From contig JAPLXC010000005.1 of assembly GCA_026396275.1 (NCBI GenBank), positions 1,615 through 65,614 of the forward strand: DNA of 64,000 nucleotides, read 5' to 3'. The translations under genes and the position numbers were made by a program. A model generated the notes under the pieces. The model was not told the DNA's origin, did not search any database, and saw only the letters and a program-made list of their open reading frames with translations. Shown here one piece after another: positions 48,396 through 62,180 of the stretch. Each line of letters begins with the position of its first letter. Positions within the stretch are counted from its first letter, which is position 1. This DNA comes from Candidatus Moraniibacteriota bacterium (lineage in GTDB: Bacteria > Patescibacteriota > Minisyncoccia > Moranbacterales > JAPLXC01).

Positions 48396-49181
48396 TTACA
48401 CTGTAAATTTTTTATTTTCTTTTTCCTTTTCCAATATTTCTCTCGTCAGATTTTTATAGGCCCTGGCTCCTCCGGAAAAAGCGTCAAAATGCAAAATAGA
48501 TTTTCCGAAACTGGGAGCTTCGGCTAGACGCACGCTGCGAGGAATAACGCTGTCAAAAACATGACCAGGGAAATGATCGCGCACTTCGCGCACTACTTGG
48601 CGAGCCAGACGATTACGGCGATCATACATCGTGAGCACTGCTCCCATTACACTCAACTGCGGCTGGAGATTTTCCTTCACTAAATTAATCGTCTCGAGCA
48701 ATTGGCTCAAGCCCTCCAAAGCGTAATATTCCGTCTGGACCGGTATGATTACTTCGTCGCTGGCTGCCAGTCCGTTGATTGTGAGCAGCCCCAAGCTGGG
48801 GGGACTGTCGATAATAATATAATCGTATTCGGTGCGAATTTGGCGAAGAACATCATAAAGTTTAAACTCGCGGTTTTCAATGTGAACCAGTTCAATATTT
48901 GCTCCTGCCAGATCCTGCGAGGCTGGCATGACATCATGCCCGAAACTTTCCGTTTTCATGATAATTTCACGGGGGTGATGACCCATTATCATCGCATGGT
49001 ATAGGCTTTTAGAGAGTTCGCGAGTGTTAATACCCAGTCCTGATGAAGCATTTCCTTGCGGATCAAGATCAACCAGAAGCACAAACTTACCCGCCGCCGC
49101 AAGATACGTAGCTAAATTAATAGCTGTGGTGGTTTTTCCCACTCCGCCTTTTTGATTGACGAGAGATATGATTTTCGCCAT
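48396..49181 (-). CDS. parA: chromosome partitioning ATPase ParA/Soj
   Basis: KGGVGKTTTAINLA deviant Walker A. Confidence 0.9.
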   Translation of the reverse strand: MAKIISLVNQKGGVGKTTTAINLATYLAAAGKFVLLVDLDPQGNASSGLGINTRELSKSLYHAMIMGHHPREIIMKTESFGHDVMPASQDLAGANIELVHIENREFKLYDVLRQIRTEYDYIIIDSPPSLGLLTINGLAASDEVIIPVQTEYYALEGLSQLLETINLVKENLQPQLSVMGAVLTMYDRRNRLARQVVREVRDHFPGHVFDSVIPRSVRLAEAPSFGKSILHFDAFSGGARAYKNLTREILEKEKENKKFTV

Positions 49182-49205
49182 AATTAGCTATAGTATACAT
49201 CAAAA

Positions 49206-49221
49206 GCCGCTGTGGCGGAAT
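49206..49221 (+). pseudogene. orphan 5' tRNA fragment (acceptor plus D-stem start) complementary to the 3' half at 49443..49478
   Basis: gccgctgtggcggaa follows the pattern of the tRNA-Leu 5' end gccgaagtggtggaa. Its acceptor strand pairs with cagcggc at 49471..49477. Confidence 0.4.
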
Positions 49222-49268
49222 CCATGCACCAATCCCGACAAACGGGGTGGTGCGGGACAAGCTGGCAG

Positions 49269-49351
49269 ATTTACCCCGCACTAATTTTGCCGAAGTGGTG
49301 GAACGGTAGACACGTACGACTCAAAATCGTATGAGCTTATGCTCATGTGGG
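49269..49351 (+). tRNA. tRNA-Leu (anticodon CAA), long variable arm
   Basis: Acceptor GCCGAAG/CTTCGGC, anticodon loop CTCAAAA, a 17-nt variable arm, T-loop TTCGATT. Flanked by 18-bp inverted repeats CCCCGCACTAATTTTGCC / GGCAAAATTTAGTGCGGGG. Confidence 0.85.
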
Positions 49352-49442
49352 TTCGATTCCCACCTTCGGCACAATTTAGGCAAAATTTAGTGCGGGGCGC
49401 GCGACTCCCCAAACCAAATTCTCTTTCAGCGAATTGGTATGG

Positions 49443-49478
49443 GGCAGGCAAAATCGTGTGGGCTTACGCTCATATCGG
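49443..49478 (+). pseudogene. tRNA-Leu-like 3' half (anticodon loop to 3' end) lacking a contiguous 5' half
   Basis: caaaatcgtgtgggcttacgctcatatcggttcgactccgatcagcggca parallels the 3' half of the adjacent tRNA-Leu. No 5' acceptor strand within 200 nt except the fragment at 49206. Confidence 0.45.
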
Positions 49479-49596
49479 TTCGACTCCGATCAGCGGCACA
49501 TGTTTTGAACATGCTTCGTTGCTTGACTTTTTATCAATTCTGTACTAATATGATATATCGGACTTGTACAAGGTTTATTTAAAAAAGGAGGAAAAA

Positions 49597-49707
49597 GTGA
49601 AGAAATACGAGGAAAAAAACGGAGACCAGACACTTTTCGAAAAAATAAAAGAGAAGCTGGAATCGCTCTTGGCAACGATAATATTATGGAAGGGAGGACA
49701 TTTCTAA
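49597..49707 (+). CDS. unannotated 36-aa ORF (MKKYEEKNGDQTLFEKIKEKLESLLATIILWKGGHF)
   Basis: GTG start 6 nt after AAGGAGG. Followed by a perfect hairpin terminator at 49718..49751. Confidence 0.3.
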   Translation: MKKYEEKNGDQTLFEKIKEKLESLLATIILWKGGHF

Positions 49708-49717
49708 TTCCTACTGT

Positions 49718-49751
49718 CAGCCGCTTGTTCTAGATTTCTAGACAAGCGGCT
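49718..49751. terminator. bidirectional hairpin CAGCCGCTTGT(T)CTAGA-TTCTAGACAAGCGGCT
   Basis: A 16-bp inverted repeat between the convergent small ORF and tatD. Confidence 0.55.
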
Positions 49752-49767
49752 TTAATTTTCGAACTAT

Positions 49768-56571: not shown

Positions 56572-56786
56572 GACTAAACTCACAATCTTGGCGACGGCCT
56601 ACTCTCCCCCCACACCAATTTCAACTACAGACCGCAATAATATTTCGCGTGCAAGTGAAGCGACTTCGCTTTCACAACTAAAATACCATAGCGACGTACC
56701 AAAAATTGGTGTGGGGGTACCATCGGGGCTGAAGTGCTTAACGGCCGAGTTCGGAATGGGATCGGGTGTACCCACTTCGCAAAAAT
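56572..56786 (-). rRNA. 5S rRNA with ~87-nt insertion in the helix IV terminal loop
   Basis: Aligned by eye to E. coli 5S. A 13-bp helix I (CAAUCUUGGUGAU / GUCGCCAAGAUUG), loop C CCGAACUC, ...CCGAUGGUA, then extended helix IV CCCCCACACCAA...UUGGUGUGGGGG enclosing ~87 nt, then GAGAGUAGG. Confidence 0.7.
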
Positions 56787-56982
56787 CACCAAGATTGTAA
56801 GTTCAGATCAAAATTTGAACTTCAAATTTATTTTAAGTAACTGCTAACTGCTAACTTGAAAAACGAGAAAGGTTTAATAGTTTATTAGTACTTCTTGGCT
56901 GAATCCCTCTCGGGACTTACACCTGAAGCCTATCAACCTCGTCTTCTTCGAGGAAACCATACCGCGCACAGCGCGGAAGTTC

Positions 56983-57113
56983 AAATTTCAAAGCTCAAAT
57001 TTTCCCGCCAAAGCGAGATCCCGCCGTGGCGGTGGCAAATCAATTTCAAATGGCTAAATTTCAAAAAAATTTTGTCATTTGGATTTTGGGCTTGATTTGT
57101 CATTTGGATTTTT
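56983..57113 (-). repeat. AT-rich TIR element (copy C) at the helix-98-equivalent variable site of 23S
   Basis: Its reverse complement aligns with copies A and B. Flanked by duplicated CGUGCGCAGCACG-like hairpins. Confidence 0.5.
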
Positions 57114-57162
57114 GATTTTGACATTCCGTGCTGCGCACGACAGTTGCCTAATCTTGGGGTGA

Positions 57163-57193
<31 letters not shown>

Positions 57194-57273
57194 TCGTCCG
57201 AACATAGCTACTCGGCGTTGCTCCTGGCGGAACAGCCGATACACCAGAGGTTCGTTCTTCTCGGTCCTCTCGT

Positions 57274-58042
57274 CACATATTCCCTTATTTCTAAGAGTGT
57301 AGACTATATCTTCATCCCCGATGGACATCGAGGAGCCGACGTGTTATAGCAACACATTTCCATATATTTTCCGTTGCTATCCTATCCCGCCTTGGCGGGA
57401 TAAAGTCGTTACGGGGTCAATCCTAAAATTTTTAGCAATTTTCTTTTGGTTCTTTTTTTCTTAGTAACATAATTTTCTTTCTGAATTTTCATCACGCAAT
57501 TAATAAGTTTAATGTAATCCTTCTTTTCAAGGTTCTTTTTACTAAGAATTTTTATAGCTTTTAATATTTCTTGGCACTGGATCTTTTTGAATTTAATAAA
57601 TGGCTTTAGTTTTTCGAGAATACTTTTTGCCTTATTATAGCCATTAATTCGTAGTTCGGTTATGCTATCATTTCTTCTGGAAATATAACCAATGCCGATT
57701 TTTTTCCTAATCCAGTACAAGGGTTTTTCGTGGCGCGAATCCTGATAAAAGCAAATAGTAACCATGAAGCGGCTTTTTCCATTGTCGCTTCGTTTTTTTA
57801 TTTGCAACATTAAGCTTCCATCGCCATCAAGAAAACCTGCAATATAAGCTAAATTAATTTTAGAACGACTTCCCACGGTATTATCTTAATTATTTATCCG
57901 GTCCTCAAGTAACTTTATCATATCACAAAATTCGCTGGACCGCAAATCATTTTGTGATCCCACAAACCGGAAAATAAATGAAGACTTCACCGTTATTAGT
58001 CGGATTTTCAATTCCGCTTGCGCGGAAAAGTAGCAATCTTCT
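57274..58042 (-). mobile_element. group-I-like intron in 23S rRNA at the sarcin-ricin loop (between E. coli U2656/A2657 equivalents), encodes a LAGLIDADG endonuclease
   Basis: Exon junction reconstructs CUCUAGU|ACGAGAGGACC. 5' exon ends in U and the intron ends in G. Shares blocks (AUCCGACUAAUAACGGUGAAG, AUACCGUGGGAAGUC) with the intron at 59118..59358. Confidence 0.7.
57409..57876 (-). CDS. LAGLIDADG-family homing endonuclease (intron-encoded)
   Basis: LAYIAGFLDGDGS motif near the N-terminus. 155 aa, single-motif type, inside intron A. Confidence 0.8.
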   Translation of the reverse strand: MGSRSKINLAYIAGFLDGDGSLMLQIKKRSDNGKSRFMVTICFYQDSRHEKPLYWIRKKIGIGYISRRNDSITELRINGYNKAKSILEKLKPFIKFKKIQCQEILKAIKILSKKNLEKKDYIKLINCVMKIQKENYVTKKKRTKRKLLKILGLTP

Positions 58043-58105
58043 TACTAGAGAAGACTCCCCTCAAGCAACAACGCCTACGGCAGATAGAGACCAACCTGTC
58101 TCACG

Positions 58106-58389
58106 CATATTTGTTCACTTATTACTAAGTGTATGGACTATAACTTAATCCTTTTTTATTTTGTACAAAATTAGGATTGCTAACATTTAGTCTCTACGGG
58201 TTTGTAATTATTTACAATTCCCTCGGTATTGTCCAAACATATTTTGGATTTTACCGAAATTAGTTAGCTTCTCTTTTAACATTACTGTTAAAAGCCGCCA
58301 TGAATGATGTCATTAAATATCCTCGGGTTCAAACAGTAAAATCTCCTTTAACTAAAAAGCTAATGAAGCTAATAGCTAAAAGCTGCTTT
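58106..58389 (-). mobile_element. group-I-like intron in 23S rRNA at the I-CreI-type site (E. coli ~2593; AACCGU|CGUGAGACAG)
   Basis: A 284-nt insertion in the invariant GUCGUGAGACAG segment. Intron ends in G. No ORF. Confidence 0.65.
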
Positions 58390-58453
58390 ACGGTTTGAAC
58401 CCAGCTCGCGTACCGCTTTAATTGGCGAACAGCCAAACCCTTGGGAGCTTCTC

Positions 58454-58493
<40 letters not shown>

Positions 58494-58720
58494 TCCTCCG
58501 TCGATATGGACTCTTGGGAGGAATAAGCCTGTTATCCCCGGGGTAACTTTTATCTGATGATCTTCCACCCTCCTATGAGGGATGGTCGGTTCACTAAATT
58601 CCACTTTCGTGACTGATTGACTTATGGGTCTTTCAGTAAAGCTGGCTTGTGCTTTTGCGCTACCGGCCCGATTTCCATCCGGACCTAGCCAACCTTAGTA
58701 AACGCCTCCGTTGCATTTTG

Positions 58721-58751
<31 letters not shown>

Positions 58752-59117
58752 AGGCACTGTTCCCAACCCGGTACCAATAACCAACAACTTACAACTCACA
58801 ACTAAAATAACATTAAAAGAAATGTTATCAGTTGTTTGTTATCAGTTAGTCATTAGTAACGGGTTAGGGTTAGAACTAAAACTTCAGCAGGGTGGTATTC
58901 CACTGTTGCCTCCATCCCGACCAGAATCGGGACTTCATCGGCTCCCACCTAAGCTCGGCAGCTAAAACTCTAATCCAATGCCAAGTTGTAGTAAAGCTCC
59001 ACGGGGTCTTTTCGTCTTGCCGTAGGTCGACGGCATCTTTACCGTCATTGCGATTTCACCGGGTCCTTCGTCGAGACAGTTACCAAGTCGTTACGCCTTT
59101 GATGCGGGTCAGAATTT

Positions 59118-59358
59118 CATTTTTGCTGTTTTGCTTTCGCAAACAATAGACTATATCTTCACCCCGATATTATATCGGGGGCCGACGTGTTACCCACAAT
59201 AATTGTGAGTCCAGATTAAATAAATAATCTGAGTCGTTACGGGGTCACTAGGACTTCCCACGGTATTACCATATCCTTCAAGGACTTAGGCTTCACCGTT
59301 ATTAGTCGGATTGCTCATGCCGCATTGCTGCGGCATTCAGGCAAATGTCTGACACTTT
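59118..59358 (-). mobile_element. group-I-like intron in 23S rRNA near E. coli position 1951 (CCUUGUCAGGU|AAAUUCUGACC)
   Basis: A 241-nt insertion. 5' exon ends in U and the intron ends in G. Homologous to intron A. No ORF. Confidence 0.65.
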
Positions 59359-59778
59359 ACCTGACAAGGAATTTCGCTACCTTAGGACGATTATAGTTAT
59401 CGCCGACGTTCACTGGCGCTTCGGGAACAAGCTTTCACCCGCTCCGTTAACGTTCCAGCACTGGTCAGGCGTCAGCCCCTATACTTCCCCTTGCGGGTTT
59501 GCAGAGACCTGTGTTTTTGGTAAACAGTCGCCTGGTAAACTTTCGCTGCGTCCCGCCCTTTTGGACTAAAATTTTAAGGCTTCATGAATTTTATTTTCAC
59601 AAGCTTAAAATTCATTCCCAAAAGGGCGGGAAAGACATTTCGCGAACTTACGTCTAGTTTTTTTGCCGAGTTCCTTAACGAAGGTTCTCCCGTTCACCTT
59701 GGGCTACTCGCCCAGTCCACCTGTGTCGGTTTTCGGTACGGACGCTGTTAGATTCGCTCGTATCGCGCTTCGCGCGAT

Positions 59779-59925
59779 ACATCGCTAAATTCAAAAATCA
59801 AAGTGCAAAATGCAAAATTAAGGAACTCGCTACACTCGTAATTTTTTATATTTTAAATATAAAATAATCAGTCGCGAAACGACACCAAAATTTTGATTTT
59901 TGATTTTTGCATTTTGAATTTGAGT
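59779..59925. repeat. AT-rich family-2 inverted-repeat element inside a 23S variable region (domain III)
   Basis: Arms CAAAAATCAAAGTGCAAAATGCAAAA / TTTTGATTTTTGATTTTTGCATTTTG, like 16187..16382. Confidence 0.45.
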
Positions 59926-61085
59926 GAGTATCACACGAAAGGTGATACGAACGACATAGAGGTTTTTCCTGGTAGCGCGCTCGTTCAGCTTCCCCTGATA
60001 AAATCAGAGTTCGCCGCGTTTCTTGAAGTAATGCCCTGCGGATTTGCCTGCAGAGCCCTCTTAAAACGCGGACGTTAATCCAATAAATCGCCTGAATTAC
60101 TGCACTACGTCACCTCATTTATAAACTAATAGCGGTGCCGGAATATTAACCGGCTGTCCATCGACTACGCCTTTCGGCCTCGCCTTAGGACCGACTAACC
60201 CTGGGATGATCGTCATTGCCCAGGAAACCTTGGACTTGCGGTGTGCCGGGTTTTCACCGGCATTGTGGTTACTCATGCCAACATTCTCACTTCCATAAAC
60301 TCCAGTCCGACTCACATCGAACCTTTGCTGCTTATGGAACGCTCTCCTACCGCCAATGCAAAGCATTGGCCCATATCTTCGGTACCATGTTTAGCCCCGT
60401 TACATTTTCGGCGCGAATCTTCTGGTCTAGTGAGCTGTTACGCACTCTTTAAAGGGTGGCTGCCTCTAAGCCAACCTCCTAGATGTATAAGAAAATTCAC
60501 TTCCTTTCCCACTTAACATGGATTTAGGGACCTTAGATGATGATTTGGGCTGTTTCCCTTTTGAGATCCGACCTTAGCGCCGGATTTCTGACTGCCTCGG
60601 TAAATATCGCAAGAATTCGGAGTTTGGTTGAGAACCCTGCGGCGAACCGCGAGTCCTCATTCAGTAGCTCTACCTCTTGGATACAATGTCGAGACGCTAG
60701 CCCTCAAGCTATTTCGGAGAGAACCAGCTATTGCCAAGCTCGGTTGGAATTTCTCCTCTACACACAAGTCATCTCCCAGTTTTGCACGGCTGGTGAGTGC
60801 GGGCCTCCCCCCGATTTTACTCGGGGTTCACCCTGCTCATGTGTAGCTCGCCTGGCTTCGGGTCTAGTCCGCGCGACACGCCTTGTACCACAATGGTACA
60901 AGGCAAAGCCCATTTAAGGCTCGCTTTCACTGTGCATATCCTCCAAAGGAGTTTATACAAGTCACGCAAAACTAACTCGTTGGCTCGTTCTACAAAAAGC
61001 ACGCAGTCACCCCGACTTGCGTCGGGGCTCCTACTCTTCGTTTGCATATGGTTTCAGGTTCTATTTCATCTCCCTCACCGGGATA

Positions 61086-61122
<37 letters not shown>

Positions 61123-62180
61123 ATCTCGCACAATATTTAGCCTTGGAAGATTAGTGCTCCCAGATTCAGACGGGATTTCTCCGGTCCCGCCCTACTTGAG
61201 AATAATAACCGTAAAGATGTTTTCTTTTTATGTACAGGGCTATTACCTTCTATGGCCGCTCTTTCCAGAGACGTTCTATTAAAAAAACATTTTATAACTC
61301 TACCTCCGCAGAATGTAACACGTTGAGAAAAATCTCAAGATGTTACAAACTCGGAGCGTTACCATCCCGCAACGCCGCAATCACCAAAGTAATTACGGTT
61401 TTGGCTTTTCCCCTTTCGCTCGCCACTACTTGGGGAATCACTATTGTTTTCTTTTCCTCCTGGTACTAAGATGTTTCAATTCCCAGGGTGCGCCATACGC
61501 ACCTATGAATTCAGCGCGTATTAATCCCGCCGAGGCGGGATTGGATTGCTCCATTCGGATATCCCCGGATCAAAGCTTGCTTGGCAGCTCCCCGAGGCTT
61601 ATCGCAGCCTGCTACGTCCTTCATCGCTTGTACGAGTCAAGGCATCCACCATATGCATGAGTAAACCTTTCTCTTTGTTAGCAGTTAGCAATTACTTAAC
61701 TTTAGCTAACTTTTTCTTAATTTACGACCTACTTAAAACTTACCACTTTTCACTGACTCATCTTTCCGCAAAACGCGAACAAGCCAATGACAGTTGGTTA
61801 AGACCTATTCAGTTTTCAAGGAGCGATTACTGCGGAAATAAATTAGAACAATATTATTCAAACTTATTTCAACACTAATCATCAACCTGTCACCCACTCA
61901 CCAGTTTCGAAAGCATTCTGGTGATTTCCTAAAACTGGATACACAGTCGCGCCTTCGGCTTGATCTGAAAAAATATTAAATATTGATAAAAACTGGTGAG
62001 GGATTTGTTTCTCTTATCAAAATCAAAGATTTTGAAGAGAAACAAAAAACCGCTTGTTCGGCGGGCTGTCTCCTCAAGAACAACTTAAAAATAAAGAATT
62101 TACCCGCTTCTTTTTCCAATATGCTTTTTTCGAATTGTCTTTACTATATGTTTGAAAAAATAATTAGTTAGTCAGTTTTC

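Follow-up and report, generated by a model that had tools for sequence, protein, structure and literature searches.

An intact tRNA-Leu(CAA) gene nested within the palindrome-interrupted pieces of a second tRNA-Leu(CAA) gene beside parA in a Moranbacteria contig

Introduction

What is to be made of a locus at which an intact tRNA-Leu(CAA) gene lies between the separated parts of another one? The question is raised by a 64,000-nt stretch of DNA (the window) from Candidatus Moraniibacteriota bacterium (GCA_026396275.1, contig JAPLXC010000005.1, positions 1,615 to 65,614), in which a first-pass annotation noticed such an arrangement next to parA and offered three explanations: an integration scar, the nested insertion of one tRNA unit into another, or a split tRNA. 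We analyzed the locus with tRNA and RNA-family searches, fold predictions and a comparison with related loci, which are given here as L followed by a number. The ancestral parA-adjacent gene (type A) was found to be wholly present, in four pieces separated by three palindromic insertions, and a complete, different tRNA-Leu(CAA) gene (type B) sits at the center of the second palindrome. We consider it probable that the locus shows one tRNA gene caught in the course of being replaced by another, a nested cassette having entered through a lineage-specific palindromic mobile element.

A complete outer gene in four pieces around an intact inner gene

ARAGORN called the inner gene as an 84-nt tRNA-Leu(caa), and it scored 60.9 bits with Rfam RF00005 (gathering threshold 29) as a type II tRNA-Leu. 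It has the acceptor stem GCCGAAG/CTTCGGC, a long variable arm and the anticodon CAA, and we presume that it is functional. The outer gene was entirely present and in order, at 49206-49221, 49263-49269, 49398-49406 and 49449-49499. Three hairpin insertions break it: one within the D-loop (16/17), one where the D-loop ends (22/23) and one inside the anticodon loop (33/34). The features of the locus, with the H2 type of palindrome defined in the next section, are as follows.

49206-49221, + strand: outer tRNA positions 1-16, GCCGCTGTGGCGGAAT, identical to intact type A genes at 16/16 positions
49222-49262, + strand: insertion (i), D-loop 16/17, H2-type palindrome CCATGCACC...GGTGCGGG
49263-49269, + strand: outer D-loop segment TGGCAGA, positions ~17-22, with the same TGGCAGA-TTTA-CCCCGCAC junction as in L096/L118
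49270-49288, + strand: left side of insertion (ii), inverted repeat, consisting of TTTA, the arm CCCCGCAC (49274-49281) and the leader TAATTTT
49289-49372, + strand: inner intact type B tRNA-Leu(CAA), from ARAGORN and Rfam RF00005
49373-49397, + strand: right side of insertion (ii), inverted repeat, consisting of the trailer AATTTAGGCAAAATTTA and the arm GTGCGGGG (49390-49397)
49398-49406, + strand: outer positions 23-33, CGCGCGACT, 9 nt, 2 nt short of the canonical CGCGCACGACT
49407-49448, + strand: insertion (iii), exactly between U33 and C34, H2-type palindrome CCCCAAACC...GGTATGGGG
49449-49499, + strand: outer positions 34-76, a direct repeat of the inner gene that matches intact type A genes

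The first outer piece comprises the acceptor 5' strand, U8-G9, the D-stem 5' strand and the start of the D-loop, and the third comprises the D-stem 3' strand, G26, the anticodon-stem 5' strand and C32-U33. The last piece carries the anticodon CAA, the anticodon-stem 3' strand, the variable arm, the T-arm, CAGCGGC and the discriminator A. It matches intact type A genes except at two variable-arm positions and is identical to a fragment in L094. Over 52 nt beginning with the anticodon CAA and reaching the 3' end, 49449-49500 directly repeats 49322-49373 of the inner gene, with 81% identity. The outer acceptor strands, GCCGCTG and CAGCGGC, are exact complements. When the four pieces were joined and compared with the intact type A gene of L095 (GCCGCTGTGGCGGAATTGGCAGACGCGCACGACTCAAAATCGTGTGAGCTTATGCTCATATCGGTTCGACTCCGATCAGCGGCAC), 81 of 83 positions agreed and there was one 2-nt deletion; intact type A genes match one another at 74-81 of 85 positions. 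Since the pieces are nearly identical to intact tRNA-Leu(CAA) genes of related metagenome contigs, they are not chance matches. The joined product has a G:G mismatch or weakened D-stem, and its 2-nt deletion falls in the anticodon-stem 5' strand. As a contiguous tRNA the outer copy gave no match with Rfam at E-values up to 10 or with ARAGORN -i0,300; the intron options that had been proposed as a check (-i0,300 with a lowered threshold) returned the inner tRNA and a spurious low-quality call.

Much of the first-pass description stood: the canonical inner tRNA-Leu(CAA), the 16-nt 5' end at 49206, its acceptor strand exactly complementary to the 3' acceptor, and the tRNA-Leu-like 3' half. The positions of two of these needed correction. 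The inner gene lies at 49289-49372, about 20 nt to the right of 49269..49351, and the 3' half lies at 49449-49499 and not at 49443..49478, so that it runs about 20 nt further. The annotation was mistaken in taking the stretch from the D-loop through the anticodon 5' stem of the outer tRNA as missing, since TGGCAGA (49263-49269) and CGCGCGACT (49398-49406) supply it. L096 holds the same D-loop and D-stem/anticodon-stem pieces directly flanking the same hairpin, and this gives comparative support for a complete middle.

The insertions are palindromes peculiar to this tRNA locus

In the related loci we identified a recurrent unit in which a tRNA reads ...ACGACU(33), is followed by the hairpins H1 (..GAAC-N8-GTTC..) and H2 (CCNNGCACC-N6-GGTGCNNGG), and resumes with CAAAAU(34...). 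The H1-H2 unit was present at 33/34 in L085, L089/L119, L096/L118 and L098, in tRNA-Leu copies whose acceptor stems differ. The H1/H2 stems covary: 95% of cells pair and 5 of the 16 pairs are changed on both sides, a score that was reached by 0 of 500 shuffles, and slid controls dropped to 23-43% paired. All three insertions of the window are H2-type palindromes with extra central sequence, and a stable hairpin was predicted for each. Insertion (i) has a central nested hairpin, ATCCCG-ACAAA-CGGGGT, followed by ACAAGC; it folds as DNA at -10.5 kcal/mol (z = -3.0) and is homologous to an insertion in L084 (alignment A2). Insertion (iii) has a nested hairpin at its center followed by CAGG, folds as DNA at -8.7 kcal/mol (z = -2.8) and is homologous to the insertion at the same site in L120 (alignment A3).

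Insertion (ii), at position 22/23 (49270-49397), has the inner tRNA at its center, in the order CCCCGCAC, then TAATTTT, the inner tRNA and AATTTAGGCAAAATTTA, then GTGCGGGG. Its full inverted-repeat arms are CCCCGCACTAATTTTGCC (49274-49291) and GGCAAAATTTAGTGCGGGG (49379-49397); 18 of their 19 positions match, a single 1-nt bulge interrupts them, and the left arm reaches 49291, thereby taking in the first 3 nt of the inner tRNA. Joined by a short artificial loop, the arms gave a DNA fold of -19.7 kcal/mol (z = -9.1). The matching and the fold bear out the earlier suggestion that 18-bp inverted repeats around the inner tRNA could form a stem. At the same D-arm site L096/L118 read TGGCAGA-TTTA-CCCCGCACC-CTTGT-GGTGCTGGGG-CGCGCACGAC, a hairpin with a 5-nt loop and no tRNA inside. 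This cargo-free hairpin indicates that the 18-bp inverted repeats belong together as the arms of a single palindrome, into the center of which a tRNA came. A junction homologous to that of insertion (ii) was also found as CCCGCGCTAATTTT followed by a tRNA in L108 and as CCCTGTATTAATTTT in L121.

The hairpins were confined to this setting. The 740 kb of fetched DNA contained the H2 pattern in this form at tRNA-Leu loci only, and no copies were present elsewhere in the 64-kb window, where a single 14-nt match to the rpsI terminator was judged to be chance. Rfam returned no known family for the hairpins of six related loci, and at the locus itself, at E-values up to 10, it returned besides tRNA only noise (MIR904, Deinococcus Y RNA, ROSE). 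We thus observed covarying hairpins that are specific to this tRNA locus.

Several known classes of element were considered and rejected. Terminal inverted repeats of the kind seen in miniature inverted-repeat transposable elements are present, as 15-18 bp arms around the inner tRNA; such a transposon was rejected for want of a target-site duplication and of dispersed copies in the window, or off tRNA-Leu loci in the 740 kb. By inspection, integron attC sites did not fit (the R''/R' consensus was unmatched and H1 is only ~24 nt), nor did Xer/dif sites (wrong sequence and location), repetitive extragenic palindromes or bacterial interspersed mosaic elements (not multicopy), or a T-box or transfer-messenger-like RNA (no matches). 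A search of viral contigs with H2+CAAAAT matched ordinary terminators only and the outer tRNA 3' end was unmatched there, so a phage origin is unsupported.

Related loci and the ancestral state

Close relatives were drawn from a protein collection and a metagenome scan, GTDB reference genomes having none (best ParA 64% identical). The scan, made with the outer 3' end, returned 22 loci, mostly ordinary uninterrupted type A tRNA-Leu(CAA). In at least nine Moranbacteria contigs whose ParA is 79-86% identical to that of the window, an intact type A gene stands beside parA, divergent from it, and carries the exact 5' and 3' ends found in the window. It follows that the outer gene of the window is the ortholog, in disrupted form, of this resident gene. 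The divergent arrangement of parA and tRNA-Leu(CAA) was also seen in reference metagenome-assembled genomes of Parcubacteria, Saccharibacteria and Paceibacterota. Among 17 distinct parA-adjacent Moranbacteria loci examined, 12 carry tRNA-Leu debris. Together with the arrangement being conserved across the candidate phyla radiation (CPR), this count upholds the first-pass view of a parA-proximal hotspot.

Every related locus keeps exactly one uninterrupted tRNA-Leu(CAA). A contiguous tRNA covering both halves, named in the first-pass annotation as a finding that would tell against a rearrangement, was in part what we found: at the orthologous loci both halves are explained by one ordinary contiguous tRNA. 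In L102 the 16-nt 5' fragment recurs, broken at the same point, upstream of an intact type A gene. The nesting also occurs reciprocally: L108 and L121 have a type B 5' fragment (positions 1-22), then ...CCC..TAATTTT, then a type A gene, inside which both contigs end. Outer copies form a decay series, with 65 of 81 positions matched in L084, indels in L081 and truncation in L120, and the interrupted copies of L096 and L098 are chimeras of unmatched halves. Three pairs of loci (L096=L118, L089=L119 and L081=L082) are 100% identical in independent assemblies, and the complex arrangements of the relatives are hence not assembly artefacts. The intact parA-adjacent tRNAs of genomes with ParA 80-90% identical to that of the window have the acceptor stems GCCGCTG, GCCGAAG, GCCCGGA, GCCCGAG, GGGCGTG, GCCCGGG and GCCGCGA. 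Such wide variety among close relatives suggests frequent allele replacement and not slow divergence.

In L085, L086 and L096/L118 the tRNA pieces are accompanied by a gene in their midst for a GIY-YIG protein of 83-94 aa (PF01541, E-values down to 1e-16), and the nearest solved structure to this protein is the UPF0213 protein BH0048. L118 and L119 come from the same sample and have flanks that are 82-86% identical; the GIY-YIG module, bounded in L118 by H1-H2 units, is present in L118 and absent in L119. The 54-nt H1-H2-CAAAAT unit is 100% identical between them (L118 1739-1792, L119 1907-1960). Such identity despite diverged flanks points to recent transfer or conversion.

Other tRNA remains at these loci were of several kinds. 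L098 has an array of at least three tRNA-Leu 3' fragments, up to ~620 nt downstream of the intact tRNA and upstream of parA; two of the fragments are preceded by H1-H2 at 33/34 and also have 38-70 nt T-loop insertions, and another H2 hairpin directly adjoins the final 13 nt of an acceptor end of type A. The 1177-nt contig of L086 holds an intact type A tRNA-Leu, then a 94-aa GIY-YIG open reading frame (ORF), then a second type A copy that has lost its first 2 nt and is interrupted at D-arm 22/23, where the window has its tRNA-bearing hairpin, by a perfect palindrome of 19 nt, CCTGCCTGC-T-GCAGGCAGG. On the 3' side of its intact tRNA, L085 has a miniature copy in which GCCACGG is fused to GTCT, H1-H2, CAAAA and a full 3' half ending in CCGTGGC, so that the acceptor strands are perfectly complementary despite the deletion of the D-arm and the anticodon-stem 5' strand. 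The 3' fragments of L084, L094 and L114 share ...GCACG CCTGTCCGCC TTT GGCGGAACT/CAAAATCG. Because TGGCGGAACT corresponds to tRNA positions 8-17, these may be positions 8-17 fused to 34-76 with a local inverted duplication, and not an inserted element. L003, from Paceibacterota, has an exact 18-nt copy of a tRNA 3' end, AAGTCCCACCCCGGGCAC, ~170 nt downstream of its tRNA-Leu(CAA), and partial tRNA-Leu duplicates beside parA are thus not confined to Moranbacteria.

A probable case of tRNA gene replacement

Of the explanations first offered for the locus, nested insertion of one tRNA unit into another is the one backed by the comparative data. Presence/absence polymorphism and reciprocal nesting were both seen among the relatives. 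Judging by the type A genes that occupy this position elsewhere, the inner type B gene is the newcomer. Most likely it has taken over the job of the type A gene, and the outer copy is probably a young pseudogene. Expression could have been kept through the promoter of the old gene:

49156-49184, + strand: sigma-70-like promoter TTGACG-17-CATAAT, 10/12 matches, within the first codons and the start codon of the divergent parA

The CATAAT that overlaps the parA ATG is kept in relatives, and there was no other promoter-like site between this promoter and the inner tRNA, so that nothing else of the kind precedes the unit. Transcription of the entire tRNA locus into a single precursor probably starts from it, and the inner tRNA would then have a leader of ~100 nt. 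From a transcript that begins inside the parA start, the inner tRNA alone would be matured, by RNase P at its 5' end and by 3' processing at the other, and would supply tRNA-Leu(CAA), with the outer pieces left as a recent pseudogene.

As to how this state arose, we propose that the palindromes are a lineage-specific family of small elements, found in Moranbacteria tRNA-Leu loci only and often beside a stand-alone GIY-YIG gene. They might spread by break-induced repair or gene conversion in a homing-like manner, possibly triggered by the GIY-YIG protein, and the conversion would drag flanking tRNA sequence along, leaving 5' and 3' tRNA fragments around a surviving intact copy. Palindrome centers may act as fragile sites at which templated insertions accumulate, here a tRNA cassette. 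Disruption of the resident gene would be tolerable where an intact copy is carried or retained, and repeated replacement would explain the unusual acceptor-stem diversity of this tRNA among close relatives.

A number of observations weigh against this account. We found neither defined element ends nor a target-site duplication (there is no second copy of the flanks, GATTTA and CGCGCG), and the 64-kb window contains no integrase or transposase gene and, by tblastn, no GIY-YIG gene. The GIY-YIG proteins of the relatives are bare catalytic domains of the UPF0213 type, and the case for them as the mobilizing nuclease is circumstantial. The outer pieces have no excess of point divergence, being as close to an intact gene (81/83) as intact type A genes are to each other, and parts of the window insertions are common to genomes with a ParA of only ~80-85% identity. 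Decay would be expected in an old pseudogene, and so either the event was recent, or conversion refreshes the pieces, or selection maintains them. With the insertions removed in silico, ARAGORN still called the joined outer sequence as tRNA-Leu(CAA), and in the RNA fold predicted for the entire locus the outer acceptor strands are paired with each other. Finally, the exact arrangement of the window is known from one contig.

Alternative explanations

The last of these observations but one bears on a different reading, in which the locus is a functional, multi-intron nested tRNA gene: the inner tRNA would be released, the insertions removed and the ends rejoined into a second type A tRNA-Leu(CAA). 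In its favor are the essentially undiverged pieces (81/83), the acceptance of the joined sequence by ARAGORN, the position of the insertion sites in cloverleaf loops, the covarying hairpin stems, and the minimum-free-energy fold of a 295-nt region (-128.9 kcal/mol, z = -6.7), in which the acceptors are paired and the insertions extruded as hairpins. CPR bacteria are also known for many rRNA introns (PMC10714607; PMC9297842). Among these points, only the lack of divergence and the siting of the insertions in loops carry real weight. Against them stand the 2-nt deletion in the anticodon-stem 5' strand and the G:G mismatch or weakened D-stem in the joined product, and the insertion between U33 and C34 would have to be removed exactly for decoding. 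The insertions, only 41-42 nt long or mostly filled by a tRNA, bear no group I signature: RF00028 had no match at 49100-49650 at E-values up to 10 and none in six related loci, its matches in the window lying only in the 23S rRNA. A group I intron was accordingly rejected, a 42-nt insertion being far too small for a group I core. By inspection, the predicted fold contained no bulge-helix-bulge; the insertions are plain hairpins abutting the exon, without a 3-nt-bulge pair around a 4-bp helix. To our knowledge no tRNA splicing endonuclease is known in bacteria, and neither a splicing endonuclease nor an RNA ligase was found among the scanned ORFs adjoining the tRNA locus. The interrupted copies of the relatives are truncated, chimeric (L096, L098) or decaying (L084, L081, L120), always beside an intact gene. 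We therefore regard splicing of the outer gene as very unlikely. The split tRNA first suggested is likewise not supported, given that the middle of the gene is present, that every related locus has one uninterrupted tRNA-Leu(CAA) and that the outer copies of the relatives are decaying.

The integration scar fared no better, and we hold it to be highly improbable that a tyrosine-integrase element entered tRNA-Leu, lost its interior and left attL/attR-like partial copies. The 3' fragment does begin at the anticodon loop, a known integration sublocation, and L003 does have an exact 18-nt duplicate of its tRNA 3' end. However, the direct repeat of the window is only 81% identical over 52 nt, with CTTCGGC against CAGCGGC as acceptor strands, and 76 nt without a gene separate the full gene from the 3' fragment. 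A 5' fragment lies upstream too, middle pieces are interspersed, the neighbors are housekeeping genes without an integrase nearby, and viral contigs have no match to this tRNA. The idea that the 3' half is an attR-like duplicate thus fails on repeat identity, spacing, fragments on both sides and the absence of an integrase.

A metagenome assembly artefact, in which strains with type A and type B alleles were joined into a chimera, was also weighed. The arrangement of the window is on one contig only (ParA cluster P0001 has one member, on one contig), and the contigs of L108, L113 and L121 break inside the tRNA, a sign that assemblers struggle there. Yet the junctions were independently seen elsewhere: GGCAGATTTACCCCGCAC in L096/L118, GGAAT/CC in L102, CCCGCGCTAATTTT followed by a tRNA in L108, and CGACT/CCCC...GGGCAGG/C in L120. 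Equally complex relatives are 100% identical across independent assemblies, and a collapsed repeat would not give a nested order of pieces, so we find an artefact extremely hard to credit. An invertible, phase-variable cassette, with the 18-bp inverted repeats as recombinase sites that flip the inner tRNA on and off, has next to no probability in our estimate, for although 15-19 bp inverted repeats surround an 87-nt segment and the 9-6-9 geometry of the palindromes resembles recombinase core sites, the inner tRNA points the same way at all related loci, no recombinase gene is nearby, the L096 hairpin with its 5-nt loop shows the arms to be one palindrome and not two sites, and turning off what is probably the only tRNA-Leu(CAA) would harm.

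Surroundings of the locus

The tRNA locus is on the + strand, and its divergent neighbor is parA (48396-49181, - strand), whose product is 100% identical to a protein from a Moranbacteria metagenome-assembled genome in NCBI. The genes around it encode TopA, RelA/SpoT, ParB, ParA, TatD and MetRS. Just 3' of the locus is a small independent gene (49523-49752, + strand) with a promoter-like TTGACT-17-TAATAT at 49523-49551, a strong Shine-Dalgarno sequence, a 36-aa ORF at 49598-49708 (MKKYEEKNGDQTLFEKIKEKLESLLATIILWKGGHF) without a Pfam match, and a perfect hairpin at its end (~49718-49752). A DUF805 RNA match of Rfam at 49614-49650 was weak and sub-threshold (E = 0.54). Further along, the window contains a 5S rRNA (56686-56793) and, in the region 56686-61672 on the - strand, a bacterial 23S rRNA that carries group I introns according to Rfam; the 23S match spans 3340 nt against a model of 2925 nt. 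Two group I intron matches lie near the 23S, at 59128-59368 and 58115-58316. The latter is beyond the 3' end of the large-subunit rRNA alignment, and the 23S 3' exon may therefore be displaced.

Implications

The locus is best classed among known phenomena, namely tRNA pseudogene fragments made by mobile DNA. It is genuinely unusual in that the D-arm of a disrupted tRNA gene encloses its intact successor, within a palindromic element. Fragments beside tRNA genes are usually read as integrase scars; here they are the ends and the middle of one gene surrounding what is probably its replacement. The agents would be short covarying palindromes in cloverleaf loops, apparently moving between diverged genomes of one CPR lineage, and in related genomes the same locus appears to have been repeatedly invaded and rebuilt. 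If the homing-like model is true, a selfish element can afford to break an essential tRNA gene present in single copy, since it brings a substitute with it, and this would account for the large acceptor-stem differences of this tRNA between close relatives. Were the outer gene spliced after all, bacteria would have their first tRNA with several non-self-splicing introns, and the nesting of a tRNA gene in the D-arm of another tRNA would likewise be without precedent. In practice the locus calls for caution when tRNAs are annotated in CPR genomes, and it gives a defined place for asking whether CPR bacteria remove non-group-I RNA insertions, as has been proposed for their rRNAs.

Comparison with known systems

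We found no description in the literature of such insertions in CPR tRNA genes, and the locus was compared with five known systems. Group I introns occur in the anticodon loops of bacterial tRNAs, tRNA-Leu(UAA) and others (bioRxiv 10.1101/2020.01.27.920355). As there, a tRNA-Leu anticodon loop is interrupted here, and this genome has 23S group I introns; in contrast, the locus has no RF00028 match and its anticodon-loop insertion is 42 nt. Partial tRNA genes left by integrating elements, as attL/attR duplications, are treated in PMC9897764 and in Williams 2002 as cited there. Like them, the window has tRNA-Leu fragments beside a complete gene, a 3' fragment that starts from the anticodon loop and a recurrent hotspot. 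Unlike them, it has no integrase or island, its 81% repeat derives from a different tRNA allele, its fragments are interrupted and lie on both sides, and the complete gene is inside the broken one.

Archaeal multi-intron, split and tri-split tRNA genes have mobile bulge-helix-bulge introns (PMC4090602; Fujishima et al. as cited in PMC10714607). In them several short structured insertions occur at non-canonical positions of one tRNA gene, and insertion sequences are common to different tRNA genes, which suggests transposition; both features recur here. Our locus differs in its bacterial host, in having no evident bulge-helix-bulge or splicing endonuclease, in the uninterrupted paralog that is always present, in the many truncated copies and in one insertion that holds a whole tRNA. 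The likeness is thus superficial.

Closer parallels are found among mobile elements. SegB of phage T4 is a free-standing GIY-YIG homing endonuclease that promotes the inheritance of a tRNA gene region, with co-conversion of its flanks (PMC2330249). The relatives of the window resemble that system in having a GIY-YIG gene among tRNA copies and presence/absence polymorphism, and flanking tRNA sequence may have been co-converted in them as well; they differ in that their 83-94-aa proteins are bare catalytic domains without a recognizable DNA-binding domain, that the window has no such gene and that the hosts are CPR bacteria and not phages. Double-hairpin elements (DHEs), as in Allomyces, and GC-cluster palindromes are known in fungal and protist mitochondrial genomes. 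The Allomyces DHEs, like the units described here, are ~50-nt, two-hairpin sequences with covarying stems, in or beside RNA genes, and are tied to mobile endonuclease ORFs and partial gene duplications. They belong to another domain of life, the likeness is one of architecture, and our units are held strictly to one tRNA gene and one position (33/34). By analogy, the locus would seem to work most like a SegB-type homing region combined with short double-hairpin mobile palindromes.

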